Assembly (NCBI GenBank): GCA_035479015.1
Contig: DATIJC010000011.1
Location: 1-52,441 of the forward strand
DNA length: 52,441 bases
Reading direction: 5' to 3'
Origin: Patescibacteria group bacterium
GTDB taxonomy: Bacteria > Patescibacteriota > Microgenomatia > UBA1400 > UBA12028
Below the pieces are notes generated by a model. The model searched no databases. It had not been told where the DNA came from and saw only the letters and a program-made list of their open reading frames with translations. This document shows positions 9,804 to 52,441 of this stretch, one piece after another. Both the position numbers and the translations under genes were made by a program. Each line of letters begins with the position of its first letter. The first letter of the stretch is position 1.

Positions 9804-9805
9804 AA

Positions 9806-13846: not shown

Positions 13847-13851
13847 CCTTC

Positions 13852-13898: not shown

Positions 13899-14507
13899 AT
13901 GCAAAATTCAAAATATCTTGCCGAATTTATCGGCACATTCTTTTTAGTCACAGTTGTAGCATTCACGGGTAACCCACTTGCTATTGGTGCAGTACTGATG
14001 ACGATGGTCTATGTATTTGGCCACGTCAGTGGGGCTCACTTCAATCCGGCAGTAACGTTTGCTTTTTGGTTGAAGAAAAAGATGACGGGAAAAGAATCAC
14101 TGTATTATGTTTTATCTCAATTTTTAGGCGCGCTTGTTGCCGGCATTTTTTACTCTGTAAATACACGTTCTCTTTTCCTGCCCGAACCAGCCCTTCACGT
14201 CTCTTTTCTATGGGCAGTTGTCATCGAAGCGATATTTACATTTTTACTCGTAAACACGATTCTTCACACCGCCGCGGACAAAAGAGTCAAAGGCAACCAA
14301 TATTTTGGTCTCGCAATCGGCGCAGCATTATTTATAGGAGCTACAATTGGCGGACCAATCTCAGGAGGAGTCTTTAATCCAGCCGTTGGAATCGCCCCTT
14401 GGTTACTATCTACTCAAACAATTGGAAGTAATTTATCAGTCTTATTTATCTATCTCTGCGGTCCCTTGCTTGGCGCACTTGCAGCCTCCGCAATTAACGA
14501 TAAATAA
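13899..14507 (+). CDS. MIP-family channel (aquaporin/glycerol facilitator)
   Basis: 202 aa with six hydrophobic segments and two NPA boxes (HFNPAVT, VFNPAVG). Confidence 0.9.
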   Translation: MQNSKYLAEFIGTFFLVTVVAFTGNPLAIGAVLMTMVYVFGHVSGAHFNPAVTFAFWLKKKMTGKESLYYVLSQFLGALVAGIFYSVNTRSLFLPEPALHVSFLWAVVIEAIFTFLLVNTILHTAADKRVKGNQYFGLAIGAALFIGATIGGPISGGVFNPAVGIAPWLLSTQTIGSNLSVLFIYLCGPLLGALAASAINDK

Positions 14508-14517
14508 TCGTTGAGAA

Positions 14518-14673
14518 TTAGTATCCCTCACTAGATTGACCACCGAAATGAATACCGGCGTAGGAGCGGTTATCTTCTTGAGTCATTGCCAAACGAACTG
14601 ACGTACCTATCCCTAGGATAAGGACAATCAAAAGTATAATCAGCACGAGAATTTCTAGTTTATGTTTTTTCAT
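14518..14673 (-). CDS. small membrane protein (51 aa, absent from the ORF track)
   Basis: Hand translation gives MKKHKLEILVLIILLIVLILGIGTSVRLAMTQEDNRSYAGIHFGGQSSEGY. ATG start and an N-terminal TM helix. Confidence 0.3.
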   Translation of the reverse strand: MKKHKLEILVLIILLIVLILGIGTSVRLAMTQEDNRSYAGIHFGGQSSEGY

Positions 14674-14709
14674 TAATTGCCTCGTGTAGAATGATACTAT
14701 TCATATCCT

Positions 14710-15300
14710 ATGAGTGAACAGAAAAGAAATCCATTGGAATCACTTCGAACCACAAGCATGTACTTTACACCCGGAGAGCCTGGATACATTCCGGGCAGTT
14801 TAAATAGGAAGGAAAGGAAATCTGATCATGAAGTTTTCATGTATATCCGAAACGGAGTAAAAGAACTGAAAAGTGGTAGACCTTTTGGCAAACCAATACA
14901 ATTAGACGCCAGACAGACCGAAATTGTACTGGCTCGCCTCAAGTGGGACAAAGTAGAAATTGGCCAGCCAATTGAATATTCTACCGAAACAATAGAGGAC
15001 AAACCAAAACAGGGATCAGAAACTTTTAAGTTATCTGAAGGTCTTTATTTCCGTATAACATATGGAACGCAAGATGACGGAGAGGAAGGTTTTTCACAAT
15101 CAGTGTTCCCCGAGGGAGGTTTGCTATCCGGTGAAAAACCGGATCAGGTTGCCAGTCATCATGCCTCACTTAGCAACGTAGGAGAAGCTAGTGAGATCGT
15201 GCGCAATTATCCTCGATATAATAATCGCGAGAAAGAACAGACCAAGTCACAAAGTTTTCTGGGTAAAATTTTTCAACACAAACGTGAGAAAATTTGGTAA
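14710..15300 (+). CDS. hypothetical protein
   Basis: 196-aa ORF, hydrophilic, no family recognised. Confidence 0.5.
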   Translation: MSEQKRNPLESLRTTSMYFTPGEPGYIPGSLNRKERKSDHEVFMYIRNGVKELKSGRPFGKPIQLDARQTEIVLARLKWDKVEIGQPIEYSTETIEDKPKQGSETFKLSEGLYFRITYGTQDDGEEGFSQSVFPEGGLLSGEKPDQVASHHASLSNVGEASEIVRNYPRYNNREKEQTKSQSFLGKIFQHKREKIW

Positions 15301-16133: not shown

Positions 16134-16205
16134 GCTCCCGTAGGCTAATGGATAGACCGTGGGCCTCCGAAGCCTGAGATGTGCGTTCGATTCGCACCGG
16201 GAGCA
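16134..16205 (+). tRNA. tRNA-Arg (anticodon CCG)
   Basis: Acceptor GCTCCCG/CGGGAGC, anticodon loop CTCCGAA, T-arm GTGCG-TTCGATT-CGCAC. The D-stem has one mismatch. Confidence 0.85.
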
Positions 16206-16796
16206 CTAATTTTGAGGCGGCTCGTCTTTATCGAGTGGGAATTTGGCCTGCATCCAATTGGCGGCTTTATCCAGCCAGGTGGGACGTGGCTTCTCATGTA
16301 CTGTGTACTTGAGCATTATTTTCTTCATGTTTTCTTTTTCTACCCCATCCAAAAGAACTATCAAAACTCCCGGGAAAGCCCTTGCAGTCTCTACATGCAT
16401 GAGGTCATGGCCATACTTGGTTGTAAACCAGAACCGTCCAAGTTCTTCCCAATAAAATAGTTGGTCGCCGACGTGGATACCAAATGTAGAAACCCGGTTA
16501 TGAATATGATCTGGAGCAACTGAAGCAAGGACGTAGGAAACGAACGCCAAACTAATAACGACTGCAATAAATAAGAACTGCCCTGCAAAAAAGAGAATCA
16601 GCGAGACGAGGAAAACAATCACAGCGATCGTCGTGTAATATTCCCTGTCACGCTTTTTAAATGGGCGGGCCGGCGCATCCCACTCAAGCAGAACTTTTTC
16701 TTCATTGCGCTCATGTTCATTACGCTGCTCAGTAGTCTGCCCCGCCTGAGGTTCCTGATTTGTTTCCTGCGTGTCCATGCAATGAGTGTACCGCAT
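16206..16796 (-). CDS. hypothetical membrane protein
   Basis: The track ORF (to 16889) runs into the tRNA at 16828-16910, so it is trimmed to an internal ATG (16796; another is at 16778). Two adjacent TM helices are followed by a soluble domain. Confidence 0.55.
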   Translation of the reverse strand: MRYTHCMDTQETNQEPQAGQTTEQRNEHERNEEKVLLEWDAPARPFKKRDREYYTTIAVIVFLVSLILFFAGQFLFIAVVISLAFVSYVLASVAPDHIHNRVSTFGIHVGDQLFYWEELGRFWFTTKYGHDLMHVETARAFPGVLIVLLDGVEKENMKKIMLKYTVHEKPRPTWLDKAANWMQAKFPLDKDEPPQN

Positions 16797-16827
16797 TCTG
16801 GAATTTTTTGCCAAGGATTTGCGAAGG

Positions 16828-16910
16828 CGGAGGAGGTGGGACTCGAACCCACGAAACCTTTCGGTTGACAGTTTAGTAAACTGTTGCAATAGCCGCTATG
16901 CGACTCCTCC
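16828..16910 (-). tRNA. tRNA-Ser with anticodon ACU (A34)
   Basis: Acceptor GGAGGAG/CTCCTCC, anticodon arm ACAGT-TTACTAA-ACTGT, long variable arm (AACC-GAAA-GGTT), T-arm GTGGG-TTCGAGT-CCCAC, discriminator G. The loop sequence is confirmed by the overlapping track ORFs (..CNSLLNC..). Confidence 0.8.
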
Positions 16911-17617: not shown

Positions 17618-18019
17618 TGGTGGAGATGCCCGGATTGAACCGGGGTCCATATAGTACCAATAACATCATCTACACACATGTTCCATTGTTGATAATCCTA
17701 GACCGAACAGTGGACAAGCAGTTTCCAGGATTCACCTATCAAAAGGCTTATGTTTCACGGATAGATAACGCGAAACTGTCACACTAACTGTGTTTCCACC
17801 CATACCCGTACGCTAGTGAAATACGAGATATAAATGCCACTTTATGCCGTGAAGGCAAATTGTGGAGCAGCGAAAGAAGCGACAAAAGAGTCGAATCTCT
17901 CAGCTACTGTTCTGACAAAAGATTTGGCAGATATTGTTTTTGGTCCTTTTTAACGTCTTCCTTGACTAAAGACGGTGTGCAGATGTTAAAGAGCAATACA
18001 TGTCGAGGCGTACATCCCC
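17618..18019 (-). ncRNA. ssrA: tmRNA (SsrA)
   Basis: The 5' end GGGGATGTACGCCTCGAC pairs with the 3' end CATCTCCACCA, including the G3-U pair and an encoded CCA. T-arm-like CCCGG-TTCAAT-CCGGG. Candidate tag ORF at 17842-17928. Lies directly downstream of smpB. Confidence 0.85.
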
Positions 18020-32104: not shown

Positions 32105-33559
32105 TTACGGTGCTATTTTGTATTGAGCAAGCACCGCGGGTACACCTTTGGAGAGAGTAGGCATCACTTCTTCAAGTTGTTTCCCTGAGTTTAGTCCATT
32201 GATGGCGTCCGCGTAATACTTAATGATCTGATCATTGATCCCGTTATCATACGTATTGGATGCCATATACCAACTCACCGCATTGGGCGCCTGCGAGATG
32301 AATGCTCCCACATATGGATCGCTAGCCACTTTGGGAGCTAGATCGACGCGGGGGTACGGTTCACCGAACAGACGTACTGCTGTGGCGTCGGCATATAGCT
32401 TTTGAAGCACATCCGATGAAGACATGTAGGTGACAAACTTCCACGCCACATCCTGATCTTTGGTCGTCTTTGATACTCCTTCGGCCCAATATGAGGCCCA
32501 GGTAATCGGTTTCCCGGGTAACTGTGGGACCGGATCGACTTCAAAATCGAAATTAGGATTAATCTGTTTCATCTCAAACGCTCTCCATGACGGCGCGAAA
32601 ACCATAGCGGCTTTTTCGGTTGCGAAGGCGTATGTAGAGTTGGGCAGCGTCTCATCCCAAACTTTATCGGTCAGCATGAACTGCGTGTAAAACTGCAGCG
32701 CCGGAGGCACGAGTTGAGCTGAATCATCCGGCTTACCTGGATTTCCGCCATTTTGTAAGATGAGCAGTGCCAAAATGTCTGAAAAGTGATCAACATTTTT
32801 AGCACTACCCAGCGCTACCCCAGCGCGTGCAATCTTTCCATCAGCATCGCGCACAGTTAGGGATCTCGCCAAAACACGTAAGTCTTCCCAGGTAGTCGGG
32901 GCGGATTTCCCAGAATCGGCCAGCATCCTTTTATTGATAAAGAGTGACAGACCATCAAATTCTAAGGGGACTCCGACATATCCCGTGCCAGCTTTCAAAT
33001 CCTTGGCGGCTACAGGATAAAAGGTTTTCTCAAACGTACTATTACTCATGATATTGGCTGGTAGTGTCGAGAGTGCGCCAGTCTGAGCCAACATTGGAAC
33101 CCAAGTATTATGGAAACGGAACACATCTGGTCCCTGCCCACGGGCGAATGCACTCTGCAATCGCTCGCGATAATCTTTGATTGATTGTTGGCCATACTGA
33201 ATGTGCACCCCTGGATTCGCGCCTTCAAAATCTTTAATCACTGAGGTTAAAACATCATTTGGTTCCCACAATCCCCAGTAAACCAGATTGACCTGACGGG
33301 TAGGAGTTTTCGCTGTTTGTGACGACGTGCCTAAAAACTTGGAAGCTGCGAACACCACCGCTAAAACGATAACTAAAAGCACTGCGACAATTGCAATTAT
33401 CTTCATGGGAATCTTTGAAAAAAAGGACCCTGATGGTCTGGCTGTCTGCGCAGCGCCGCTGACAAACTCCGGCACAGCTTCAGACACGCCTGGGTTACTA
33501 GGAGCAGTCGGTGTTGCTTGTGGTACCTGACTCTGGAGACTCGGACTTTCTTGTTCCAT
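32105..33559 (-). CDS. ABC-transporter solute-binding protein (family 1-like), membrane-anchored
   Basis: 484 aa. TM anchor IIAIVAVLLVIVLAVVF, then an SBP-like domain (NLVYWGLWEP...). The real start may be MKIIAIV at 33403. Confidence 0.8.
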   Translation of the reverse strand: MEQESPSLQSQVPQATPTAPSNPGVSEAVPEFVSGAAQTARPSGSFFSKIPMKIIAIVAVLLVIVLAVVFAASKFLGTSSQTAKTPTRQVNLVYWGLWEPNDVLTSVIKDFEGANPGVHIQYGQQSIKDYRERLQSAFARGQGPDVFRFHNTWVPMLAQTGALSTLPANIMSNSTFEKTFYPVAAKDLKAGTGYVGVPLEFDGLSLFINKRMLADSGKSAPTTWEDLRVLARSLTVRDADGKIARAGVALGSAKNVDHFSDILALLILQNGGNPGKPDDSAQLVPPALQFYTQFMLTDKVWDETLPNSTYAFATEKAAMVFAPSWRAFEMKQINPNFDFEVDPVPQLPGKPITWASYWAEGVSKTTKDQDVAWKFVTYMSSSDVLQKLYADATAVRLFGEPYPRVDLAPKVASDPYVGAFISQAPNAVSWYMASNTYDNGINDQIIKYYADAINGLNSGKQLEEVMPTLSKGVPAVLAQYKIAP

Positions 33560-33561
33560 CC

Positions 33562-33571
33562 TGTTATTATA
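33562..33571. promoter_or_regulatory. overlapping divergent -10-like hexamers (TGTTATTAT / TATAAT)
   Basis: Plus strand: TGnTATTAT at 33562-33570, 18 nt before the VanW ATG. Minus strand: TATAAT at 33566-33571, 6 nt before the ATG at 33559. The second is valid only if that SBP start is real. Confidence 0.3.
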
Positions 33572-33588
33572 CGATACCTCAATACCAT

Positions 33589-35139
33589 ATGTCCAAAAGG
33601 CTTACACGGGGAGAGCGCACTCTCCATTTTTTTATTTCTAAAATCCTCCCCTTCTTGGTGAGCTTTCTATTTGGCACGACTATTTTACTGCTTTTTCTGC
33701 TTGGGAAAAATCAAACAGCAAGAACAAACAAACTCCAACCACTGCTCAAACCACTGATCTCGGAGTTTTTTATTCTCTCAGTCGATGGTGTGCGTTTTGC
33801 CACACCGAGCGCTACTCTACTTGATGCGACCACCACAAAAGCCTGGCTCCAACAAGTCGATGATCACTTCAGCGTTAATAAAAAGGATGCAACCTTGAGC
33901 GTTAAATCCGGAAAACTCGTGATAAATCCCGGCAACTTTGGGAAAGGAATCGATCAGACCCAAGCACTAGATCTGCTCATGCACATCGATCTAACTGCCT
34001 CTGCAGAAGCGAGCCTCCAATCTGTTTCGACTGGAAAAGTGCTTGATCCCGACGAGCAAACACATATCCGCGAACGGTATCAAGCGTTGGTAAATAAAAA
34101 ACTCACATTCACAGCAGGTACAGCGCACTTCACACTGACAGCACAAAACGTCGCTGCCATGATGGCTCTGCCGGATGGATTTTCGCCGGAAGGGATTACT
34201 AGCGTGATAAAAAGTTGGGCCAAGGACTTTGACCACCCTGCGGTAGAACCCCGGTTAGCGATTGTCGGGACGAGCGTAGAAGCGTTTGAGGCTCCCCGTG
34301 ATGGGGAGGTGATTACTATCGAACCATCTGTTCAAATAGTGCAGCAAGCGCTTGAAGGAGCTGACGTACATGAGCTGTCTATTAACATTACACCGCCAAA
34401 AACATCACTTTCTTCTATCAATACTCTCGGCATCACCGAGCGCTTGGGACGCGGCGATTCAACATACTTCCACTCGATACCAAACCGCATAACCAATGTT
34501 TCCCTTACCACTTCTAAAATAAATGGCGTACTTGTGATGCCTGGTGAAGAATTTTCATTTGCCAAGTACTTGGGCGAAGTCTCAGCTGCTACTGGATTTA
34601 AACAAGCATATATAATTTCGCAGGGTCAGACGATCTTGGGTGACGGTGGTGGCGTATGCCAGGTCAGCAGCACAATGTTCCGGGCAATTCTTAACGCTGG
34701 ACTTCCAGTCACGGAGCGGCGTGGTCACTCATATCGTGTTGGATACTATGAGCAAAATAGCAAACCCGGTTTTGATGCAACTGTGTATTCGCCGCATCCG
34801 GACCTACGGTTTGTCAATGACACCAGCACCCCTATCCTCATTATGGCCGTTGCTGACTCTAAAAAGTTAGCGATGTATGTAGAATTGTGGGGCAAATCAG
34901 ATGGACGTAAAGCAGAGATTCTCAACTACAAACAATGGGGGGCCACTCCCGCTCTCCCTACGGTATATCAAGACGATCCTACTCTTCCCCCCGGAAAGCT
35001 CAAGCAGATAGATTTTGCCGCACCAGGACTGAAAGTTTCATTTGACTATAAAGTTACCTATTCAGATGGACAATCAAAGACCGTAAATTTCCTTACAAAC
35101 TATGTTCCTTGGCGCGCAGTTTACCTACGCGGAGTCTAG
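33589..35139 (+). CDS. VanW-family protein
   Basis: The start is set at MSKRLTRGERTLHFF, followed by a TM anchor. VanW core GGGVCQVSSTMFRA...ERRGHSY. Confidence 0.85.
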   Translation: MSKRLTRGERTLHFFISKILPFLVSFLFGTTILLLFLLGKNQTARTNKLQPLLKPLISEFFILSVDGVRFATPSATLLDATTTKAWLQQVDDHFSVNKKDATLSVKSGKLVINPGNFGKGIDQTQALDLLMHIDLTASAEASLQSVSTGKVLDPDEQTHIRERYQALVNKKLTFTAGTAHFTLTAQNVAAMMALPDGFSPEGITSVIKSWAKDFDHPAVEPRLAIVGTSVEAFEAPRDGEVITIEPSVQIVQQALEGADVHELSINITPPKTSLSSINTLGITERLGRGDSTYFHSIPNRITNVSLTTSKINGVLVMPGEEFSFAKYLGEVSAATGFKQAYIISQGQTILGDGGGVCQVSSTMFRAILNAGLPVTERRGHSYRVGYYEQNSKPGFDATVYSPHPDLRFVNDTSTPILIMAVADSKKLAMYVELWGKSDGRKAEILNYKQWGATPALPTVYQDDPTLPPGKLKQIDFAAPGLKVSFDYKVTYSDGQSKTVNFLTNYVPWRAVYLRGV

Positions 35140-35375
35140 TTGCCACCCCAAAAAGCCTGTGACAGAACAAGTGCGGTCCGGGGAAACTTTTCGTGCGTAA
35201 ACGCTTCAACATATTCAATCATTCTATCTGGAGAATCATCAGCTGTATGATTGTCGTCCACAATACCGTTTGCCAAATCAAGCGCCATAAGCAACGCTCT
35301 CCACAAAACAGCATTTTTTTGTATTCGCTCCAGCTCACCACTATCAAAATCAGTAAGCGCTAATTCCTTGGCCAT
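35136..35375 (-). CDS. hypothetical small protein
   Basis: 79 aa from the first ATG (the track start at 35381 is a GTG). Overlaps the VanW stop by 4 nt. Confidence 0.4.
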   Translation of the reverse strand: MAKELALTDFDSGELERIQKNAVLWRALLMALDLANGIVDDNHTADDSPDRMIEYVEAFTHEKFPRTALVLSQAFWGGN

Positions 35376-35447
35376 ACACACCGCATTTTATACCCAGTCC
35401 TAGGCTTTTCCCACCTCTCGATGTAAAATATCTTACAAGGAGAACTT

Positions 35448-35702
35448 ATGGCTGTGTCTGAAGTAAATAATCCCACAAGAGTTCGACAAATTGCAGAAAT
35501 TGTTGCCCTAGCGTTTAAGCCAGAAAAACAACGCGAGTTGGCGGAAAAGTATGGACTACTGGATCAGCTACCAGAACTGACAAGGGCTTCAGTTAAACTG
35601 ACAATGTCCCCTCAAGATCGAAAAATAATGGAAGAAAATGAAAGAAAAACTCGTGAATTTAAACTGCAAGAGGAACTTAGAAATAAGAGAAGAAATAGAT
35701 AA
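35448..35702 (+). CDS. hypothetical small protein
   Basis: 84 aa. Strong SD (AAGGAG) 6 nt upstream. Its stop overlaps the valS start (TAATG). Confidence 0.55.
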   Translation: MAVSEVNNPTRVRQIAEIVALAFKPEKQRELAEKYGLLDQLPELTRASVKLTMSPQDRKIMEENERKTREFKLQEELRNKRRNR

Positions 35703-37993
35703 TGGATTCTACCTACTCTCACAAAGACCACGAAGACAAGATATACAAACTCTGGGAAGAATCAGGAGCGCTAAATCCTGATACGCAAAAAAACGCGGAC
35801 AAAAGCAAACCTCCCTACACCATCCTCCTCCCTCCCCCAAATGCCAACGCTTCACTTCATGCAGGTCACGGGATGTTTGTGGTCGAAGATATATTAGTTC
35901 GCTACCATCGCATGTTGGGTCAACCTACAGAGTGGCTTCCCGGCACAGATCACGCTGGTTTTGAAACCCAGTATGTGTATGAAAAACACCTGGCGAAACA
36001 AGGTACTTCCCGCTTTCAATTTGACCGCCAAACCCTGTTCGACGATATCTACCAATTTGTGCAAGACAACTCGGGGACAATTTTTGCGCAGCTCAAGAAA
36101 CTCGGATTCTCCTGTGATTGGTCACGAGCAACGTTCATGCTCGATGACAAGGTGGTAAAGATTGTGTACGACACGTTTGCCCAGATGGTCGAGGATGGCA
36201 TGGTCTACAGGGACAATTACATTGTCAACTACTCACCAAAGCAGGGGACGACCTTTTCAGACCTAGAGGTGACATATGCAACTCGCCAGGATCCTTTTTA
36301 CTACATCCGTTATTCGAGCGATCCAGAAATCATTATTAGCACAGTCAGGCCGGAAACAAAATTCCGTGATACTGCCCTCGCCTGTAACCCAAATGATCCG
36401 CGCTATAAAGATTTGATTGGAAAAACCATTACTTTCAATGGACTACTTGGGCCCGTGGAAATGCAGATTATCGCCGACGATGAAGTGGACATGGAATTTG
36501 GCACGGGCATTATGAAAGTGACTCCTGCTCATGATGCGCACGACTTTGCTTTAGGAAAAAAATATGATTTACCTGTTTTACCACTTATCGACTTCATGGG
36601 GAAAATGGATTTCTCCTGGTACATCGATTCGCACCAGTCACCAGCCACCAGTCACGAGTCACTATACCTTGAGCGCGCTCGAAAATATCATGGAAAGAAA
36701 GTAGCTGAAGCCAGAAAACTGATCGTCGAAGACATGATGGCCGAGGGCATGATCGTCAAGGTCGATGAAAAATATACTCACAATGTCGCCGTGGATTATA
36801 AAACCGGCTCGGATATTGAACCAATGGTGATGCCCAACTGGTTTGTAGCCACCAAGAAACTTGCAGCTCCTGCCATAGCAGCCGCCCGAAATAAAAAAGT
36901 GCAATTTGTACCCGCCCGTTTTGAGAAAACCTACTACGACTGGATGGAGAACATCCGTGACTGGCCAATCTCCCGCCAGATCGTCTGGGGCATCCGCATT
37001 CCTATCTGGTACTCTGTTAAAGACAATCCCAATCTCTCCGTGACATTTCTAGATAAAGACAAAAATCGCGTAACAGGAATAGTTGGCGAACTTTTAGGCG
37101 ATATACGATATACGACATACGATATACTTTCAGGTTTGCAGTCTCTTCGTGCCCCAATGGGTGCAAAATATGTCGTCAGTGTCGACTCGCCGGGCGAAGA
37201 CTTTTTACCAGAGACAGATACCTTTGACACGTGGTTTTCTTCGGGTCAGTGGCCACTGACAACCTTAAACTACCCGAACGGAGATGACTTTAATCGCTTT
37301 TTCCCCACACAGGTACTCGATACCATGTGGGACATCTTGTTCTTCTGGGTCGCACGCATGATCATGTTCTCGCTGTATAAAACAGGTGAAGTTCCCTTCT
37401 CTACTGTGTACCTACACTCGATGGTGACGGATGAAAAAGGCGCCAAGATGAGTAAGAGCAAGGGCAATGTAGTTAATCCGATCGAACTCGTAGATAAATA
37501 TGGCGCCGATGCATTGCGCATGGCGCTCATTGCCGGCTCCGCACCAGGCAACCCAATAGCCCTCTCAGAAAACAAAGTGAGAGGCTACCGGAATTTCTCG
37601 AATAAGCTTTGGAATATAGGAAGATACATCACTTTGCTTACAGAGCAAAGTGAATTTTCAAGTTCCAAGGTTCAAGTTTCAAGTCAATCTGAAGATAAAA
37701 AACTCATCGACGAACTAAATGACTTAGTTAAAAAAACTACCGAAAATCTTGATAATTATCGCTTCTCAGATGCTGCATTATCTGCGTATGACTTTGTCTG
37801 GAACAGACTCGCTAGTGACTACTTGGAAAAAACAAAATCAAGAGAGGATAAAGAAGCAGTTTTCGCAACGCTCTATACTGTATTCTCCACTTGCTTGAAG
37901 TTACTTCACCCCTTCATGCCCTTTGTGACGGAGGCAATCTGGCAAGAATTTGGCGGAGAACTTCTTATTACCTCTCCATGGCCTGTATACTAA
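35702..37993 (+). CDS. valS: valyl-tRNA synthetase (short form)
   Basis: 763 aa. Motifs PPPNANASLHAGH (HIGH) and KMSKS. No long C-terminal coiled coil. Confidence 0.92.
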   Translation: MDSTYSHKDHEDKIYKLWEESGALNPDTQKNADKSKPPYTILLPPPNANASLHAGHGMFVVEDILVRYHRMLGQPTEWLPGTDHAGFETQYVYEKHLAKQGTSRFQFDRQTLFDDIYQFVQDNSGTIFAQLKKLGFSCDWSRATFMLDDKVVKIVYDTFAQMVEDGMVYRDNYIVNYSPKQGTTFSDLEVTYATRQDPFYYIRYSSDPEIIISTVRPETKFRDTALACNPNDPRYKDLIGKTITFNGLLGPVEMQIIADDEVDMEFGTGIMKVTPAHDAHDFALGKKYDLPVLPLIDFMGKMDFSWYIDSHQSPATSHESLYLERARKYHGKKVAEARKLIVEDMMAEGMIVKVDEKYTHNVAVDYKTGSDIEPMVMPNWFVATKKLAAPAIAAARNKKVQFVPARFEKTYYDWMENIRDWPISRQIVWGIRIPIWYSVKDNPNLSVTFLDKDKNRVTGIVGELLGDIRYTTYDILSGLQSLRAPMGAKYVVSVDSPGEDFLPETDTFDTWFSSGQWPLTTLNYPNGDDFNRFFPTQVLDTMWDILFFWVARMIMFSLYKTGEVPFSTVYLHSMVTDEKGAKMSKSKGNVVNPIELVDKYGADALRMALIAGSAPGNPIALSENKVRGYRNFSNKLWNIGRYITLLTEQSEFSSSKVQVSSQSEDKKLIDELNDLVKKTTENLDNYRFSDAALSAYDFVWNRLASDYLEKTKSREDKEAVFATLYTVFSTCLKLLHPFMPFVTEAIWQEFGGELLITSPWPVY
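36632..36666. repeat. heptanucleotide tandem tract in valS (5 units)
   Basis: CACCAGT CACCAGC CACCAGT CACGAGT CACTATA. Encodes HQSPATSHESLY. Confidence 0.8.
37100..37127. repeat. heptanucleotide tandem tract in valS (4 units)
   Basis: GATATAC GATATAC GACATAC GATATAC. Encodes DIRYTTYDI. Confidence 0.85.
37657..37684. repeat. heptanucleotide tandem tract in valS (4 units)
   Basis: TTCAAGT TCCAAGG TTCAAGT TTCAAGT. Encodes FSSSKVQVSS. Confidence 0.85.
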
Positions 37994-37997
37994 TCAC

Positions 37998-38393
37998 ATG
38001 CATTTGATAAAATTCTATTTTCTCTGGCTTATTGCAGTCTTTGCCAACGTCTTTCGACCATTCGTTTTTATAATTCGTTGGTCTATTCGTTTGTTATTCG
38101 TTGTTTTCCTTATATGGTTCATTGGAGGAATTGGTGTCTGGTCATATAGATACATACAATCTCTGCCCACCAGAGAACAAGCAAGGCGTGAAACAAATGC
38201 GCTGCTTATGCAAAAAGCCCAATTGGAGTCTCTTCTTAAAAATCACCAGAACTCTAGAGATGTTTCGCTCGACCTCGCAATAATTTCACTAAAGCTTGGA
38301 GATGACACACTAGGACAGTATTATTGGGAAAACCTGCAAAAAATTGACCCAAACAATACTCGAGTAGAATTACTCAGTAGCTTTTTCCGTTGA
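37998..38393 (+). CDS. hypothetical membrane protein
   Basis: 131 aa from the ATG at 37998. Two TM helices, then a helical (TPR-like) tail. Contains a 12-nt x4 tandem repeat at 38060-38107. Confidence 0.5.
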   Translation: MHLIKFYFLWLIAVFANVFRPFVFIIRWSIRLLFVVFLIWFIGGIGVWSYRYIQSLPTREQARRETNALLMQKAQLESLLKNHQNSRDVSLDLAIISLKLGDDTLGQYYWENLQKIDPNNTRVELLSSFFR

Positions 38394-45618: not shown

Positions 45619-45875
45619 ACTTTTACACACTTTGTGGAAAAGTCGGTGGATAAGTGGGGAAAAGGTGTGGAGAAATTTTATAAATTGTCTAAAACTTTTG
45701 TTTTCCACTTAGTTTTACCTTGTTTTGCCCATTCTTATATACATAAACTGATACATATATTAGGCGAAAAACACTTGAGTCTGCGAACACTTTCCCACTA
45801 ATCCACCCTACTACAACTACTACTGCTATTTTCTATTAACAGTTAAAACACAATTGTGATAGTCTACTGGCAGTT
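45619..45875. promoter_or_regulatory. putative oriC (DnaA-box cluster plus AT-rich tract) between dnaA and dnaN
   Basis: Boxes TGTGGAAAA 45633-45641, GGTGGATAA 45645-45653, TGTGGAGAA 45666-45674, TTTTCCACT 45701-45709 and TAATCCACC 45799-45807. AT-rich stretch at about 45731-45765. Confidence 0.6.
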
Positions 45876-46991
45876 ATGAAAATCACCGTTCTGACAGAAA
45901 ACTTACTTCCAATAATCCAGGAAGCACAGCGATTTATTTCAACAAGACCTCAGTTGCCAATCTTCTCAGGGATTTCTTTACAAACCACCAGTGAGGGGCT
46001 GTATATACGTACTACAGACATGAAAACTGGTTATCAATCAAGAGTAGGGGGAAAGGTAGAGAGAAAGGGGGAGACTGTAGTAGTAGGTAAGCCGTTTGTA
46101 GATTTTCTCTCCACACTGACTGTCGGTCCAGCCGAGATAACTCTATTAGACACACAAATGTTGGAAGTAAAACAGAAACGCAGCACTGCGAAGTTTCAAA
46201 CATTTCCTTTTGATGACTTTCCACCGTTTGCAAACATTCCGGAAAAACAAACAGAGATAGAGAAAGAAACATTTTTACAACTCGTTCAAAAAACTTCATA
46301 CGCCGCAGGTATTGATGAAGCCCGACCAGTATTGACAGCATTGCATCTTGAATTTAGCGAAGGCTCGATAATCGGAGTTTGTACCGACGGATATAGACTA
46401 GCTATCCAAGAGCGGCAGGTAAAGAATCAGGAAGGAAAACTAGAGAAAATATTAGTACAAGCAAAAACACTCACAGAGTTTGCACGCGGTCTATCACGCT
46501 CAAAGGAGAAAAAAGTTCTTTTAGGAACATCAAGCGAGCTTCAGGAGGCCTTCTTTAGCGTGGGGGAGACTACATTATTCTTGCGGCTCATTGAAGGGAA
46601 GTTCCCGGACTACAACGCAATAATTCCAGAAAACTTTGCGTTTAAGATCCAATTACAATGTGGCGAACTACTCTCTGCAATTAAGACAGCCACGATCTTC
46701 GCCCGGGAATCATCATCAATTGTGACGCTACGGTTTGTAAAAGGAGAGTGCTTTGTGGAAGCTGCAAGCTCAGGATTGGGAGAGAACAGCACAAGCTTGG
46801 AGTGTGATTATGAAGGCAGTGAAGAGATGAAAATTTCATTCAACTCAAGATTTTTATCCGACGCACTCTCGCATATTGATGGTGAGGTAGCACTTTTATC
46901 AGTAAACGATTCACTCAAACCAATGATTATTCGCGAAGCCGGAAAAGAAGATCTCCACAGTCTCCATGTAGTGATGCCGTTTAAGAAATAG
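45876..46991 (+). CDS. dnaN: DNA polymerase III beta sliding clamp
   Basis: 371 aa, in the conserved position after dnaA, with the three-domain clamp length. Confidence 0.9.
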   Translation: MKITVLTENLLPIIQEAQRFISTRPQLPIFSGISLQTTSEGLYIRTTDMKTGYQSRVGGKVERKGETVVVGKPFVDFLSTLTVGPAEITLLDTQMLEVKQKRSTAKFQTFPFDDFPPFANIPEKQTEIEKETFLQLVQKTSYAAGIDEARPVLTALHLEFSEGSIIGVCTDGYRLAIQERQVKNQEGKLEKILVQAKTLTEFARGLSRSKEKKVLLGTSSELQEAFFSVGETTLFLRLIEGKFPDYNAIIPENFAFKIQLQCGELLSAIKTATIFARESSSIVTLRFVKGECFVEAASSGLGENSTSLECDYEGSEEMKISFNSRFLSDALSHIDGEVALLSVNDSLKPMIIREAGKEDLHSLHVVMPFKK

Positions 46992-48867
46992 CAGGAGGTG
47001 TAGGAGTTGGTAATGCACTACTTTGTCTTGTGGGTGTGATGCTGGCTGCAGCAGCCTCAGCTTGTTGTTTAGCAATTATTTCTTGTGGATTAGTAGTGAT
47101 AACTGCATGTTCTTTATCACTAGCAATTACGCGTATAGCGATGTGGTTCTGTCCAGCAAAGAAGAGTCCCTCTCCTACATCTGCTGCTAAAAGTAACCGC
47201 CGCTCACCCTCAGAGAGGAAAAACACTTCTGAAAGTTTCGGCACCGCTGCTGAAGACTGCTTCATAAGCAACTGAATTGAGGAGTTAGTAACGATCGCTT
47301 TACCATATTCATTGCCTAAAAAGTCTTCTACGTCCTGAGTGATGGTAGTGATGCCTAAGTAATACTTGCGGGCACGCTTGGCGAGCGAGTGTAAGAATGA
47401 TGCACTATCTCCGTGTTTCATGAAGTACCATGCTTCATCAATGACAAGTACGCGCTTCTTTAACTCTTTTTTCACACGCGTCCAGACGAAATCAAGAATG
47501 ATGAACATGGCGATGGGCCGAAGAGCCTCTTCAAGTTCTTTGACAGAAAAGACTGTGAAGTGATTGGTAATGGAAAAATTGGATTTTTGATCAAAGATGC
47601 CACGAAATGATCCACGGACAAATTTTTCCAAACGCGCTGCTAGGTTTTGCGCCTCGTTGGTTTCCATACCAATCAACACTTTATAGAGATCTTCAAGTAG
47701 TGGCGGCTCGTTTGATTGTGTCGCGGGCTCCGGAGTAATGCCTTTTGATTTATAAGCGCCGACAATAGCCCGGTCAAGGATAGCATCTTCTTGCGGAGTC
47801 ATTTCCCCCATCATGATGCGCAGTAGGGTGTGGAGGGAAAGAATTTTTTGTCCGAGCTCGTTTTGACCCTCTTCAAAAACCGCAGAGAGATCAAAGGGAT
47901 TGATTTTAATCGGTGAGTCAAACGTAAAATTGACATATTCGCCACTCACAGTTTTACACAAGTCCTCATACTCGTGCTCTGGATCAAGGACAATGACATC
48001 GGTATCAAACATCATTTGCCTATAGGCCTCAAGTTTAATAGCATAGGACTTTCCCGCACCAGATTTAGCAAACACCACCATGTTGGCATTTTCCATACTG
48101 AAACGGTCAAAGATGACGAGCGAATCATTATGCTCATTAATTCCATACACAATTCCTTCCTCCATGGTTAGTTCTGAGGAGGTGAAAGGGAATGTGGTGG
48201 CAAGAGACGTAGTGTCCATGTTACGAACAAATGATAATTTATCGACACCTGTGGGAAGTGTGGTTTTAAAACCCTCTTCCATCTGTAAAGTAGCCTTCTT
48301 ACTAATGATCAAGAGTGAACCAAGAGTGGATTGGACTTGTTTGGTAGTGCGGTCTAGATCTTCGAGAGAATCAGACGTGATGGTGATGTAGAGACCGAAC
48401 TGGAAAAAACGCTCTGCGCCTTTTGCTAGCTGCTCCTGAATGGTACGGGCATCTTCAAGTTTGATTTCTGTATCAATATTGCCAATCTTGCCATTTTTTA
48501 AATCACTGGAGAGTTCGGCTTCCATTTCTGTGATCTTTCGGCGCAAGTCTTGTAAAATCTTGGCGCTATCTACAGGAAAGATATACATTGAGATGTCCAT
48601 GGCATGCGGAAAAGTAATGAGGGGTGATAGCCAGTTAGCGGGCACGGAGCGTGGATAGCCAGAGATAAACAATGTTCGGGTGAACGTTGAATTAATGTGT
48701 TGATAAGTAAAATCAACCTCGATCGCTTCTGGGGCAATGATATCAAGAATACTCACAAGTCCAGACGAAAATTGCGTTATCTCAGGAGCGATCGCTGGCT
48801 CCTTTACTGCAGGAGCAGCTGCATCATTTTTTTTAGATGGCAGGTTTTTAAATAAGTTAAGGGCCAT
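46981..48867 (-). CDS. virB4: VirB4-like type IV secretion ATPase (Gram-positive TraE/PrgJ type)
   Basis: 628 aa. Walker A FAKSGAGKSY, Walker B VLVIDEAWYF. The N-domain pattern LDIIAPEAIEV..RTLFISGYPRSV..WL is typical of VirB4-like proteins of Gram-positive conjugation systems. Confidence 0.85.
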   Translation of the reverse strand: MALNLFKNLPSKKNDAAAPAVKEPAIAPEITQFSSGLVSILDIIAPEAIEVDFTYQHINSTFTRTLFISGYPRSVPANWLSPLITFPHAMDISMYIFPVDSAKILQDLRRKITEMEAELSSDLKNGKIGNIDTEIKLEDARTIQEQLAKGAERFFQFGLYITITSDSLEDLDRTTKQVQSTLGSLLIISKKATLQMEEGFKTTLPTGVDKLSFVRNMDTTSLATTFPFTSSELTMEEGIVYGINEHNDSLVIFDRFSMENANMVVFAKSGAGKSYAIKLEAYRQMMFDTDVIVLDPEHEYEDLCKTVSGEYVNFTFDSPIKINPFDLSAVFEEGQNELGQKILSLHTLLRIMMGEMTPQEDAILDRAIVGAYKSKGITPEPATQSNEPPLLEDLYKVLIGMETNEAQNLAARLEKFVRGSFRGIFDQKSNFSITNHFTVFSVKELEEALRPIAMFIILDFVWTRVKKELKKRVLVIDEAWYFMKHGDSASFLHSLAKRARKYYLGITTITQDVEDFLGNEYGKAIVTNSSIQLLMKQSSAAVPKLSEVFFLSEGERRLLLAADVGEGLFFAGQNHIAIRVIASDKEHAVITTNPQEIIAKQQAEAAAASITPTRQSSALPTPTPPAIS

Positions 48868-49705
48868 ATTGTCCTTGGGTTGGTGGTGGAGTAGGGGCTG
48901 GTAAGTTGGTTATATTCTGTGGAACCGTTTCTTGAATACTTTGAGTGGGACTGTCCGCCTTGGGTAGAGGCTCAGGAATAGCTAGTGCTGGAGTAGGAGG
49001 TCTTTCGCTAGGCGCATAACGAAGGCTCGATCCGACAAGCGGTGAGACATACTCTTTTTGATCTACCATCTTGACGCCCTTTACCGCCTCTGGGTTATAA
49101 ATCATATAAAAAAGCTGAATGAGTTCTTGGGTATTTAGCTGCGAGGCAAATAATCCAATGCGGGCAAATTGATGGACTAGGTGATCACGGCGTGGCTCTA
49201 GGTTGGTGAGGGCCTTTTCAATGATCGCGTGTTTGTCTAATGTTGGTAATTCTTTTTTCTGTATGCCTGGTATAAGTGATGAACCGACGTTTATTCCGGC
49301 CTCCAGGGCGGTATATGTGACGATAATATAGAACTTCTTCTCCAAGACATTTCGCTCTTGGACTAGTTGTTCCACAAACTCACGGTACTCTTTAATATTG
49401 TTTTTGCGCACAGGGTTATAGGCGTGAATTTCCTGATCTTTTAAGAGGTCTAGATAGGAAGTGACGTCTTTTTTTGATGATCGAATCAGGATCTCAATGG
49501 GAAACGAGAGGGAATTTAGTAAAGCTGCATACGCATAGATGGTGGCGTCTTGTTCCTCCTCTGAGTAGAGATCAAAATTGATGGCTGTGCAGCGCATAAC
49601 TAATGAACATGCGCCGTCCTGCATAATCACTAGATTATTGGATATGTCAAAAATCTCGAGATATTTTTGCGTCGTTGACTGAAGAGTGGAACCTTGGCTG
49701 ACCAT
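48857..49705 (-). CDS. T4SS-associated protein resembling an ATPase-less VirB4 N-terminal domain
   Basis: 282 aa with no P-loop. DISNNLVIMQDGACSLVMRCTAINFDLYSEEEQDATIYAYAALLNSLSFPIEILI resembles the N-terminus of Orf16-type VirB4 ATPases. Overlaps virB4 by 11 nt. Confidence 0.55.
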   Translation of the reverse strand: MVSQGSTLQSTTQKYLEIFDISNNLVIMQDGACSLVMRCTAINFDLYSEEEQDATIYAYAALLNSLSFPIEILIRSSKKDVTSYLDLLKDQEIHAYNPVRKNNIKEYREFVEQLVQERNVLEKKFYIIVTYTALEAGINVGSSLIPGIQKKELPTLDKHAIIEKALTNLEPRRDHLVHQFARIGLFASQLNTQELIQLFYMIYNPEAVKGVKMVDQKEYVSPLVGSSLRYAPSERPPTPALAIPEPLPKADSPTQSIQETVPQNITNLPAPTPPPTQGQYGP

Positions 49706-49725
49706 AAATTCATTATAGCGGTATC

Positions 49726-49823
49726 TGTCATTCCTGCGAAGGCAGGAATCCAGTCAATAAGATATTCCGCTCGTTTCTGGATCCTGGATAAGGCTCCTAA
49801 TCGCCGCCTTTACCGGGATGACA
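49726..49823. repeat. double-hairpin palindromic element, copy 3 (degenerate right arm)
   Basis: The left 35 nt are identical to copy 2 (TGTCATTCCTGCGAAGGCAGGAATCCAGTCAATAA). The right end CTGGAT...ATGACA is retained but its hairpin is diverged. Confidence 0.8.
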
Positions 49824-49824
49824 A

Positions 49825-50844
49825 TTAATTAGCCTTTATAAATAAAGGGTTTATTATGCTGTTTTTCAGTCCTAATATACTTTTCTCGAAACTAAAGCCG
49901 TCTTTCTCAACACTTACTACGTATTCTCCATCTTCAAGCGGTGTGGCGACCTCAAATTGACCTAACGCATTGGTTTTGAGGGCCCGCACGGGTAGACCAT
50001 CGAACTTGCGCGATACCGTAACGATGGCATTATCAAGTATCTTTTCATCTTTTGTCACTACCATCCCCACGATTAAGTTTGGAGTTTTAGGGACAGAAGG
50101 AAAAGGAAGCGTAGTACTTGTTTTAACTTTCTCGGATACATCACTCGGCGTGGCAGAAAATAAGGTATGCATTTCGGTCAACTTAGTGTCTAGTGGCTGG
50201 CCAACGGTCCCGAGCTTGTCGAGGGGTTTTGGAATTTCTTTACTAACATCTAATTTCCCATCTTTAGTCTCTATAGGTGCTGGCTGTGTCGGCATCTGCA
50301 TAGTCGGGCGCTCAGGCTGCTGGCCAACGGTCCCGAGCTTGTCGAGGGATGGGGTTACTGTTTGTGTAAAGAGTGCCATGACGGTCCGAATCTTTTCATC
50401 TTCCTCATCGGTTGGCTTATCACTAGGCTTTACTGTCGTAACAGTCTGCATAAATTCACCATAGCGGGTCTTGCGGTATGGCCGTAGCTCCTCTGCTCCA
50501 AAAGTAACCTGTTGGACGACGGTCGATGGGACAAACTCAAAAGCTTGGGGAACAGATTGCGTTTTTTTCCAAAAAAACATTGTTGGCTGATAGATAGAAC
50601 GGATGAAAGCGATAATCCAGCGATCAAGTGGGCGGCCCTCAAAAGGTAAGAAGGCCATACCGGCGCCGATGGCGACCGAAAGTATGGCAATAGGAATTTT
50701 AATTATCCCTGGTAAATTTGTACTATTGGCGATGACAGCAAACAACACACCACCAGCCAACTCCATGAATTGCTTGAGTGTCATGGAGCCAATGAGGTGA
50801 AACTCGTACCCCGTCACGTTTTGGGGAACCGGATGCTCTTGCAT
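49825..50844 (-). CDS. PrgI/VirB3-like membrane protein fused to a repeat linker and a carboxypeptidase-regulatory-like beta domain
   Basis: 339 aa. The N-terminus VPQNVTGYEFHLIGSMTLKQF plus two TM helices fits the PrgI family pattern. Contains an internal LDKLGTVGQ duplication. The C-terminal IVGMVVTKDEKILDNAIVTV...GEYVVSVEKDGF fits a CarboxypepD_reg-like fold. Confidence 0.65.
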   Translation of the reverse strand: MQEHPVPQNVTGYEFHLIGSMTLKQFMELAGGVLFAVIANSTNLPGIIKIPIAILSVAIGAGMAFLPFEGRPLDRWIIAFIRSIYQPTMFFWKKTQSVPQAFEFVPSTVVQQVTFGAEELRPYRKTRYGEFMQTVTTVKPSDKPTDEEDEKIRTVMALFTQTVTPSLDKLGTVGQQPERPTMQMPTQPAPIETKDGKLDVSKEIPKPLDKLGTVGQPLDTKLTEMHTLFSATPSDVSEKVKTSTTLPFPSVPKTPNLIVGMVVTKDEKILDNAIVTVSRKFDGLPVRALKTNALGQFEVATPLEDGEYVVSVEKDGFSFEKSILGLKNSIINPLFIKAN

Positions 50845-50859
50845 ACGATCAAGTATAGC

Positions 50860-51813
50860 CTATTGTGTCTTCAGAGGTATCGCGGGAACACCGATATTAA
50901 CGTCAGCTCGTGTGTTATCTACTAATAGTGCATTGCCTAGTAATCGATAAAACGGAAGAAGTAAACGCTGCCCTTCATCGAAACGGTATTCAAGCGTGGC
51001 TTTGGAAATAGTTAATTGCTGAATTGAACTAGCTGGAAATTGAAATGCTGAAATTTTTCCTTGTCTAAATAATGAGATAAGATCATCCTTATTGTAGAGC
51101 GGAGTTGATACGCCTTTTGTGGTGGTGAAGTATAACGACGGAATGACCGCTTTCCCAATTCCTTGAGAAGTTACATAGAAAACAAACTCACTAGAGAAAA
51201 CATTCGAATTTTGCACAGGAATCCCATCGACAGTGAGTGCATATGCTAATTGGATAACCACGGCTTGCTCGGGAGGTACTTCAGTTTCTTCCTCAGATTC
51301 GGAGGTATATGTCACGTGTGATGGAGTATTTGGATCAAGTGAGTAGGGGAGAGAAAGCTTGGAGAAAAAATCGGTAGCAAAACGTTCAGCCCGGGTTAGC
51401 GTGACAACTTTATCGAATGTTGCATTTGAGTTGGAATAATTGACCTGTGCTTGTCCTTTTATCTGTGACAAAGAAATTGTTTTATCAGCATTTGTGTAAA
51501 TATTAGGTGATTGTGGCAGGGGAGTAAGTTGGAGATTATTTGCTAGTGTGGGTAGTAATTGCGTCGACGAGGTTACTTCGCTCACGCTATATACATTTGC
51601 GCTTGTTGGTAGCGAAACATTGGTCGCAAACGACATGCTTGGGATCATTACTTTTTTTTCGGGGAGAAACGATGGTTCGGGGTAGACAGCCACCAGAGGG
51701 GCTCGGGTTGGAGCCTTTGGTGTGAGAAAGCGAAAAGCCAATGCTCCGACAAGCAATAAAACTAAAAATATAATGAGAACGGGTATATAGTTTCTCTTTT
51801 TCTTAGGTTTCAT
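50860..51813 (-). CDS. hypothetical membrane-anchored protein (T4SS-like locus)
   Basis: 317 aa with N-terminal anchor YIPVLIIFLVLLLVGALAF. No family recognised. Confidence 0.5.
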   Translation of the reverse strand: MKPKKKRNYIPVLIIFLVLLLVGALAFRFLTPKAPTRAPLVAVYPEPSFLPEKKVMIPSMSFATNVSLPTSANVYSVSEVTSSTQLLPTLANNLQLTPLPQSPNIYTNADKTISLSQIKGQAQVNYSNSNATFDKVVTLTRAERFATDFFSKLSLPYSLDPNTPSHVTYTSESEEETEVPPEQAVVIQLAYALTVDGIPVQNSNVFSSEFVFYVTSQGIGKAVIPSLYFTTTKGVSTPLYNKDDLISLFRQGKISAFQFPASSIQQLTISKATLEYRFDEGQRLLLPFYRLLGNALLVDNTRADVNIGVPAIPLKTQ

Positions 51814-51819
51814 AGTTTT

Positions 51820-52431
51820 TTAATTCCCACAAGTCGTTGTGAATACTTTCAAGCCTAGTGCAGGTACAGGATTCTTTGGCACGAGGTCAGTTAATAAAAA
51901 TGGGACTGAGAGCGCCTCATAATGGAGGTGATTTGCCATGTTTCCGCCTCCGGTACTGCCAGTATAACCGATAATATCTCCGGCTTTGAACTGTTTTGTT
52001 GTCTGATGTTCAACGCTTGAGTCCCAGAACTGACTTAAGTGTGCAAACATAATGCTACCAAATTGAGCATTCGCTAACACAACATGATTTCCATAAGGTG
52101 TTAGTGTTCCTCGTAAAGTGTCACCAGGAGGATTGTTATAACAAGCGACTTGTGGATCATCTTGACCATCTGTACAGGCGATAGCCGTACCATCATATGG
52201 GGTAATCACTGGGGTGCCCAGAGCATTGCCTATGTCAGCCGCGGTGCTCAGTCTACCATTCCACGTGGCATGTGGTGAGCCATCACCATAATATGCGAGT
52301 ACGGAGACTGTACCATTGGTTGGCCAACAACCCGCACCCGGAGGATTGCCAAAAGTTACTGATGCGGCTGTCGTGACTGTCTGACCTGTTGCCCCCACCT
52401 GGGCATCTGATCCTTGTACATCAAATTTCAT
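51820..52431 (-). CDS. M23-family peptidoglycan metallopeptidase (possibly 5'-truncated by the window edge)
   Basis: AADIGNALGTPVITPYDGTA, YGNHVVLAN..FAHLS and GYTGSTGGGNMANHLHYE match LytM/M23 motifs (HxH present). No in-frame stop lies upstream before the window ends. Confidence 0.78.
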   Translation of the reverse strand: MKFDVQGSDAQVGATGQTVTTAASVTFGNPPGAGCWPTNGTVSVLAYYGDGSPHATWNGRLSTAADIGNALGTPVITPYDGTAIACTDGQDDPQVACYNNPPGDTLRGTLTPYGNHVVLANAQFGSIMFAHLSQFWDSSVEHQTTKQFKAGDIIGYTGSTGGGNMANHLHYEALSVPFLLTDLVPKNPVPALGLKVFTTTCGN

Positions 52432-52441
52432 TAAGAAAACA

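Follow-up and report, generated by a model that had tools for sequence, protein, structure and literature searches.

The window analyzed here, a stretch of 52,441 nucleotides (nt) of contig DATIJC010000011.1 (assembly GCA_035479015.1), carries at its right end a block of five genes directly after dnaN. This block is a member of the already published, phylum-wide type IV secretion system (T4SS) of Patescibacteria (Candidate Phyla Radiation, CPR), in its usual chromosomal position, and is no new kind of system. Very probably it is the chromosomal, vertically inherited T4SS core of Microgenomates-group Patescibacteria and belongs to the Patescibacteria clade of the MPF-FATA class. The window itself is, as judged from its gene sequences, part of a metagenome-assembled genome of the Microgenomates group. 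In the published analysis (Quinonero-Coronel et al. 2025, PMC12102498), 2,425 VirB4 proteins grouped as one monophyletic clade of Patescibacteria, which lies within the MPF-FATA class of monoderms. TrsD and PrgI/VirB3 homologues and M23-containing VirB1-like proteins are present in these systems, few relaxases occur, a coupling protein is seldom encoded near virB4, and Microgenomatia have few VirB6 and VirB8 homologues (PMC12102498).

An earlier annotation, prepared from the letters of the window and its open reading frames (ORFs) and called here the sequence-only reading, described the block as a Gram-positive-type T4SS-like module of five co-directional minus-strand genes following dnaN. The ORF list reproduced this arrangement and its spacing exactly: virB4 and the TrsD-like gene overlap by 11 nt, and the following gaps are 119, 15 and 6 nt. 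The convergent overlap of 11 nt between the 3' ends of dnaN and virB4 was also confirmed by the ORF coordinates. All five genes are present as they had been described, except that the M23 ORF turned out to be a C-terminal fragment, the complete membrane protein having 950 aa. The locus runs past the right edge as anticipated, and the M23 gene extends ~2.2 kb beyond the window. The sequence past the edge was read on contig CAZNEY010000001.1 (assembly GCA_964572785.1), where 6.4 kb were examined, giving ~59 kb altogether. Hidden Markov model (HMM) searches of the ORFs and of the sequence beyond position 52441, proposed earlier as a check, matched the VirB4, TrsD, PrgI and M23 families, and these matches bear out the monoderm type of the module. 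The block is adjoined by dnaA, rpmH, rnpA and yidC, in agreement with the dnaA/dnaN/rpmH/rnpA neighbourhood of the Patescibacteria-clade T4SS.

The 628-aa protein matched the NCBIfam family conju_CD1110 with 381 bits (cut-off 325) over model positions 184-733. In Pfam, it matched P-loop_TraG (101.7 bits), AAA_10, DUF87 (33.6 bits) and CagE_TrbE_VirB (25.1 bits, cut-off 21). Its sole PDB sequence match was 4AG5, the VirB4 C-domain (E=2.5e-44). The Walker A and Walker B motifs reported earlier are present in the translation as AKSGAGKS and RVLVIDEAW. The protein lacks the extreme N-domain of full-length VirB4 and does not show the single-polypeptide architecture. The 282-aa protein had been said to resemble a VirB4 N-domain, and it indeed matched the N-terminal parts of VirB4 models along with TrsD/TraD. 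In NCBIfam, VirB4_plasma, a model for a Mycoplasma integrated conjugative element (ICE), was matched at positions 112-236 (E=7e-9), conju_CD1110 at positions 15-123 (E=6e-5) and the TrsD/TraD family with E=2e-4, and the precomputed Pfam annotation is PF26593, TraC-like. These matches suggest that the 282-aa protein is a TrsD-like, stand-alone homologue of the VirB4 N-terminal domain. As the two proteins match separate parts of CD1110, their genes jointly cover full-length VirB4. Splitting into TrsD and VirB4 is usual for the Patescibacteria clade and likewise for the pGO1 subclass (PMC12102498). More than 8000 homologues of the window VirB4 were found at E<1e-10, and the best 120 are 69-82% identical. 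The best homologues with a source name are nearly all from Candidatus Woesebacteria, Cerribacteria, Saccharimonadia or 'Patescibacteria group', and the best plasmid-borne copies are only 31-37% identical. By pairwise identity, the window VirB4 therefore groups with Patescibacteria and not with plasmid or ICE copies.

The 339-aa protein matched Pfam PrgI at residues 5-87 (29.3 bits, cut-off 27) and possesses a hydrophobic segment at residues 47-65. Its C-terminal part resembles a CarboxypepD_reg-like beta-sandwich (residues 258-318) with 25.8 bits, which is below the cut-off of 32.3. The motif LDKLGTVGQ is found twice in the linker between the PrgI domain and this beta-sandwich. TrsD and PrgI/VirB3 homologues are thus both situated beside virB4, as in the Patescibacteria-clade T4SS, and the position of the PrgI fusion is conserved in 67 related loci. 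The full-length M23 ORF encodes 950 aa (L001 4196-7048), and the M23 ORF of the window represents its C-terminal fifth. The protein is composed of a soluble N-terminal region of 420 residues, a hydrophobic region, a beta-rich segment and the M23 domain. A crude hydropathy scan located four to five hydrophobic, glycine-zipper-rich segments in residues 430-625. Peptidase_M23 was matched at residues 810-920 with 31.8-33.7 bits (cut-off 28.7). Among 35 positional homologues, 24 matched M23, one CHAP and one NAGPA, none matched Pfam TrbL, and 22-25 of them retain the residues H801, D813, H878, H915 and H917. In the transmembrane (TM) region of these giant proteins the glycines G473, G485, G489 and G496 are near-invariant and follow a glycine-zipper pattern. 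Just before the hydrolase domain, Cys782 in a GCWPT motif is kept in 33 of the 35 proteins, including those without M23. The neighbouring 270-aa and 984-aa proteins gave no significant matches, the latter being devoid of TM segments. In relatives, the gene upstream of the giant protein (~550-700 aa) is heterogeneous and matches no T4SS family.

The remaining member of the block, the 317-aa protein (p317), showed no sequence match in Pfam, NCBIfam or PDB, and the profile of its family gave only chance-level matches against PDB sequences and Pfam. It is bitopic with an N-terminal TM anchor (hydrophobic segment 12-30, helix 10-30 in the model). Word-indexed homologue searches with p317 and with a 30-sequence profile returned only p317 itself and one other sequence. 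With an iterated HMM, 57 ORFs occupying this position in related loci were recognised as family members, and an exhaustive search at E<=1e-3 gave 130 representative clusters. The family evolves fast (18-30% identity), its length and position being conserved, and a C-terminal motif, LEYR...P.YRF.G...ITPA, is near-invariant. An earlier AlphaFold model from a 2-sequence alignment was unusable (pLDDT 44.7), and the AlphaFold2 model from an 80-sequence alignment has a mean pLDDT of 92.1 and a pTM of 0.84. In this model the extracytoplasmic part is predicted to form three subdomains with a YycH/YycI-like fold. Foldseek against PDB gave four significant matches, namely 5COZ (EUBREC_2869, E=1.8e-7), 9A5D chain B (WalK-YycH model, 3.3e-6), YycI 2O3O chain B (1.3e-5) and YycH 2FGT (1e-4). 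The identity of p317 as VirB8 (NTF2 fold) was also considered and rejected. No VirB8/NTF2, PrgL, TraM or TcpC entry occurs among the 50 Foldseek matches listed, which argues that p317 is not a VirB8 homologue. According to the model, p317 shares the topology of VirB8, being predicted as bitopic with extracytoplasmic alpha+beta domains. Its conserved adjacency suggests a role as scaffold or regulator, toward either the T4SS or the adjacent M23 hydrolase.

YycH/YycI is unmentioned in the main text of PMC12102498 and in the main text and supplementary files of PMC10633639, and a literature search for a link of YycH/YycI or 5COZ to conjugation or T4SS found nothing relevant. A YycH/YycI-like fold is now assigned to a conserved, unannotated subunit in classes in which VirB8 and VirB6 homologues are reported as scarce or absent.

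To describe the genomic context, 80 genome loci (L002-L081) possessing a VirB4 relative with 67-84% identity were compared, and neighbours were identified by tblastn and ORF position. The order giant membrane protein (950-1680 aa), p317, PrgI fusion, TrsD-like protein and VirB4 was found in nearly all loci with enough flank, and tblastn placed a TrsD-like homologue immediately before virB4 in 73 of these 80 loci. A link of the block to an unrelated function in relatives had been named as an outcome that would speak against a T4SS; the relatives keep the same five-gene block. A downstream flank of 4 kb or more was available for 64 loci, and in 57 of these dnaA and dnaN adjoin virB4. The most common layout, seen in 50 of these 57, is fully co-directional and runs through T4SS, dnaA, dnaN, rpmH, (rnpA), yidC, jag, rnhA, DUF4012 and L25. 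In the window and in five loci (L002, L009-L012), the dnaA-dnaN cassette alone is inverted in place, giving the convergent virB4/dnaN junction; the T4SS block and the run from rpmH through rnpA, yidC, jag, rnhA and DUF4012 to L25 keep their orientation. The two groups that differ by this inversion were also given as the window, L010-L012 and L073 on one side and ~50 other loci on the other. Three of the closest relatives (L005, L006 and L008) have no dnaA/dnaN within 10 kb, which indicates that the block moves as a unit. In L006 it adjoins genes for RNase J, an Rce1-like protease, a penicillin-binding protein (PBP) and a glycosyl hydrolase of family 18 (GH18). The Rce1-like, PBP and GH18 genes of the window are likewise present a few kb downstream of virB4 in this close relative.

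The closest DnaA proteins are 74-76% identical and come from two loci, one of which belongs to a Cerribacteria genome (Microgenomates group). Many GTDB records of the CPR loci L002-L081 are titled 'uncultured Pseudomonadales bacterium', and their gene content is clearly that of Patescibacteria; these titles look like placeholder or wrong taxonomy labels. Median identity over the same genome pairs is 72% for VirB4 against 48% for DnaA and 32% for DnaN, a contrast which is somewhat inflated by the choice of loci through VirB4. The higher conservation of VirB4 argues for a very strong constraint on the machine. Co-divergence of VirB4 and DnaA identity was not informative (Spearman 0.18, p=0.17).

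The cumulative GC skew of the window has its minimum at ~45-46 kb. DnaA-box-like 9-mers are found in the dnaA-dnaN spacer at 45633, 45645 and 45666 and in the rpmH-dnaA spacer at 44147 and 44190. The skew minimum and the DnaA-box clusters together place the block on the right replichore, transcribed toward the origin, as the sequence-only reading had proposed. In 52 loci of the other layout, DnaA boxes occur at 9.3/kb in the dnaA-dnaN spacer and 3.2/kb in the virB4-dnaA spacer, against 0.48/kb overall. GC skew in these loci is negative over the T4SS genes and dnaA and positive from dnaN on, local skew at 1-kb resolution being partly confounded by gene-specific composition. The dnaA-dnaN spacer is the probable oriC. 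The operon faces the origin in both layouts, and the inversion of dnaA-dnaN, symmetric about the probable oriC, leaves its orientation unchanged. The block had been taken for the only multi-gene unit head-on to replication. It is the longest such run of the window, but three further multi-gene head-on runs are present (2537-5919, 13899-15300 and 33511-38393), and ~65% of the coding bases of the left replichore are co-directional with replication. In Paceibacteria and Microgenomatia, dnaA, dnaN, rnpA and rpmH are abundant near virB4, for which gene dosage has been invoked (PMC12102498). The main text of that paper contains neither the term 'head-on' nor 'orientation', and the observation that the operon is origin-facing in both layouts and in the model organism may be useful to those who work on this machine.

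Coordinates of the features around the T4SS block are collected in the following table.

Features of the T4SS block and the adjoining replication genes in the window
Feature	Position	Strand	Basis
virB4 ATPase, 628 aa	46981-48867	-	ORF list
TrsD-like, 282 aa	48857-49705	-	ORF list
PrgI/VirB3-like fusion, 339 aa	49825-50844	-	ORF list
Bitopic membrane protein p317, 317 aa	50860-51813	-	ORF list
M23 C-terminal part of 950-aa membrane protein	51820-52441 (listed ORF 51820-52431, 203 aa)	-	
dnaN	45876-46991	+	three DNA_pol3_beta domains
dnaA-dnaN intergenic region, probable oriC	45619-45875		DnaA boxes and GC skew
dnaA	44227-45618	+	Bac_DnaA match

The 119-nt gap between the PrgI-fusion and TrsD-like genes (49706-49824; L001 9044-9162) is the sole sizeable intergenic gap of the block and contains a promoter-like TTCGCA-17-TATAAT. 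Promoter and terminator scans gave counts no higher than in shuffled sequence, and an Rfam scan detected nothing inside the block. Elsewhere in the window, the Rfam scan located a tmRNA at 17618-18019(-) and three tRNAs at 13760-13848(+), 16134-16206(+) and 16826-16910(-), corresponding to Ser-GGA, Arg-CCG and Ser-ACT. Two full-length cytidylate kinase (Cmk) genes stand in tandem at 9102-9803(-) and 9806-10495(-), each matching Pfam Cytidylate_kin with E near 1e-67. This pair is a tandem duplication affecting nucleotide salvage, and the genome probably relies on scavenged nucleotides. A channel of the MIP/aquaporin family is encoded at 13899-14507(+) (E=4e-35); major intrinsic proteins and VirB4 were both analysed in a 2026 preprint on feeding upon host RNA. 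A GH18 glycosyl hydrolase gene is situated between two genes for class-A penicillin-binding proteins (2537-4849(+), 4846-5919(+) and 6724-8949(+)), and the first PBP gene shares 4 nt with the GH18 gene, both being transcribed head-on to replication.

The homology of VirB4, TrsD, PrgI and M23, the high-confidence prediction of the p317 fold and the conserved gene order together suggest how the machine may work. VirB4 and the separate TrsD-like N-domain protein would form a membrane-associated ATPase for assembly and translocation, by analogy with their homologues, and the PrgI/VirB3-like protein would tether this ATPase to the membrane. The polytopic 950-aa protein would take the VirB1 role, its extracytoplasmic M23 domain opening peptidoglycan locally, and it may also line a channel. 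p317, of which the fold is predicted with high confidence and the role is proposed from conserved gene adjacency, would have an extracytoplasmic role, scaffolding or regulating the complex or the hydrolase. In this reading the machine is not conjugative; the favoured function is a host-contact channel or a pilus-assembly machine through which macromolecules pass between host cell and epibiont.

Two alternatives would remove the block from the native T4SS altogether. If the 628-aa ATPase were a non-secretion ATPase of HerA/FtsK type and its neighbours unrelated envelope genes, its match to DUF87, the HerA central domain, would find a ready explanation. This reading has practically no probability left. 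The NCBIfam HerA model scored 11.5 bits (E=0.07) against the 381 bits of the VirB4 family CD1110, and FtsK was not matched in the NCBIfam search, which argues against a non-secretion ATPase. The only PDB sequence match is a VirB4 structure, and two neighbours match PrgI and TrsD/VirB4 N-domain models. As judged from these family matches, the HerA/FtsK reading is already refuted. A horizontally acquired ICE, of which the block would be a remnant or a working part, would account for a VirB4 of the CD1110 family, typical of Firmicutes conjugative elements, and for genes oriented opposite to replication. The sequence-only reading had likewise seen in the head-on orientation a mark of acquisition. 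This did not hold, since composition is native, block and site are conserved, and the orientation is common to both layouts and to Southlakia epibionticum. The GC content is 0.443 in the block and 0.450 in the window, and its tetranucleotide distance ranks 22 of 47 tiles. As had been reported, no relaxase, coupling protein (VirD4), VirB6, integrase or pilin was found by family match among the annotated ORFs of the window (most >=120 aa), and this extends to the next 6.4 kb. Neither a locus-associated relaxase with VirD4/TcpA, expected of a conjugative T4SS or ICE, nor the integrase, deviant composition and patchy distribution of a mobile element were seen. The same site by dnaA/dnaN is occupied in the large majority of informative related genomes, among which VirB4 is far more similar than to plasmid copies, and the published phylogeny shows inheritance within classes, 99.3% of the Patescibacteria-clade VirB4 having their nearest relative in the same class (PMC12102498). 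An acquired ICE is accordingly very improbable. The lineage conserves both the location beside oriC and the transcription toward the origin, and neither is a sign of recent acquisition; any transfer from monoderms would be ancient, as argued in PMC12102498.

Several points weigh against the interpretation as a vertically inherited T4SS core. VirB6/TrbL, VirB8/NTF2, a VirB2-like pilin and a VirD4-type protein were not found in the 52-kb window and the 6.4 kb beyond it, and a complete channel is therefore not demonstrated. T4SS_pilin had no match among the small ORFs tested beside the block, which comprised a part of the window's small ORFs (a 130-aa membrane protein included) and those of four close relatives. 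p317 is not VirB8-like, and conserved adjacency is what links it to the T4SS. The first zinc-ligand motif of the M23 domain has a non-canonical spacing, H-x11-D, which may be LasA-like, and because of this spacing the M23 activity is putative. Essentiality and function were tested in Saccharimonadia only, and the role has been called 'completely unknown' (PMC11665869). With the machine itself accepted, its main function could differ from the favoured one. The same T4SS may serve mainly as an importer of host nucleic acids or nucleotides, similar to ComB or Ced, feeding an organism which is unable to make nucleotides. The relaxase and coupling protein missing nearby would fit this, the T4SS has been proposed as a candidate route of nucleotide acquisition (PMC11665869), and a 2026 preprint connected parasitic feeding on host RNA with a monophyletic VirB4 and with tubular structures at the interface to the host. 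The two tandem Cmk genes are suggestive only. VirB4 weakly matches the archaeal DNA importers CedB and CedD, but the CedB score of 57.6 bits against a cut-off of 700 indicates that it is no Ced orthologue. The block also has no ComEC-like or nuclease partner. Import as the main function is a possible but rather unlikely alternative. A further conception is still less likely and is offered as speculation. The block of Microgenomates/Paceibacteria would be a self-sufficient minimal T4SS with the YycH/YycI-fold protein in the VirB8 role and the VirB6 and VirB1 roles merged in the giant glycine-zipper M23 protein. A strictly conserved head-on placement ~0.4-1.3 kb from oriC would couple its expression to replication initiation or the cell cycle.

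Taken as a native T4SS core, the block can be compared with known systems of several kinds. The archaeal Ced system (CedB) and ComB of H. pylori are T4SS-derived and work without a relaxase, and the window block differs from them in having no CedA or ComB partners besides the weak CedB score. For p317, the nearest structural relatives are YycH and YycI, regulators of the sensor kinase WalK in Bacillus subtilis (2FGT, 2O3O and 9A5D), and the uncharacterised 5COZ. All share with p317 a single N-terminal TM helix and, behind it, extracytoplasmic alpha+beta domains, with a Foldseek probability of 1.00 and E values from 2e-7 to 1e-4. They differ in showing no detectable sequence similarity and in global TM-scores of just 0.32-0.45, which are low because the relative domain orientation differs. 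YycH and YycI partner WalK, whereas p317 has no WalK-type kinase nearby and adjoins the T4SS/M23-hydrolase block.

Among the MPF-FATA systems, Trs of pGO1/pSK41, Tra of pIP501, Prg of pCF10 and the CTn2 CD1110 family share with the window the collinear VirB3-like (PrgI/TrsC), TrsD and VirB4 (TrsE/TraE) genes, a cell-wall hydrolase and the lack of outer-membrane components, and the window VirB4 passes the CD1110 cut-off. Unlike these systems, the window block is chromosomal and non-mobile, without relaxase, coupling protein or adhesin, and VirB8-like and VirB6-like proteins are not recognisable in it. The best plasmid match was found on a Pontibacillus megaplasmid (L083), which is typed non-mobilizable and carries a VirB4 with 36.8% identity. 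The order in this locus is pilin-like protein, 779-aa protein, PrgI-like protein, TrsD-like protein (E=3e-27), VirB4 and a giant, M23-type DD-metalloendopeptidase of 1050 aa. Its TrsD-like gene (8109-8933) overlaps virB4 (8923-10788) by 11 nt as in the window, and the locus lacks both a relaxase and a coupling protein. Possibly this locus is related, outside the CPR, to the Patescibacteria-type system. On an actinobacterial plasmid of Embleya, PrgI and TrsD are fused, and VirB4, a coupling protein, a relaxase-like protein and NlpC/P60 are encoded as well. These two loci indicate that the PrgI, TrsD and VirB4 core is common across monoderm phyla; the p317 family is absent from both.

The closest likeness is with the T4SS of Southlakia epibionticum (SEML1_0004/0006-0019). 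Its genes are essential for epibiotic growth as judged by transposon sequencing, and it has no recognisable coupling protein or relaxase (Wang et al. 2023, PMC10633639). A 2025 review called it the first T4SS essential for its own carrier bacterium (PMC12857230). In its gene order, VirB6-like, NTF2-like, SEML1_0011, PrgI, TrsD-like, VirB4, peptidase and lysozyme are accompanied by a divergent pilin array. In the window block the order of the five genes is hydrolase, p317, PrgI, TrsD and VirB4, and VirB6-like, NTF2-like and pilin genes were not seen near it. The label 'stripped-down' given to the block earlier is thus apt only relative to the ~14-gene Saccharibacteria locus, and the five-gene form is standard in this part of the phylum. 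In both systems a CPR VirB4 is preceded immediately by TrsD and, next to this, by PrgI; both include a very large protein with a peptidase domain and lack a nearby relaxase or coupling protein. Both are located beside dnaA/dnaN, convergent with the replication genes and facing the origin. In S. epibionticum, dnaA, dnaN and recF on the plus strand are followed by SEML1_0004-0013 on the minus strand, which is the same arrangement as in the window, and the last gene on the T4SS side overlaps the recF 3' end by 4 nt. Few machines have been shown to be indispensable to epibiotic life; the Patescibacteria T4SS is one of them and is important as a whole, and the window locus is a textbook example of this published system.

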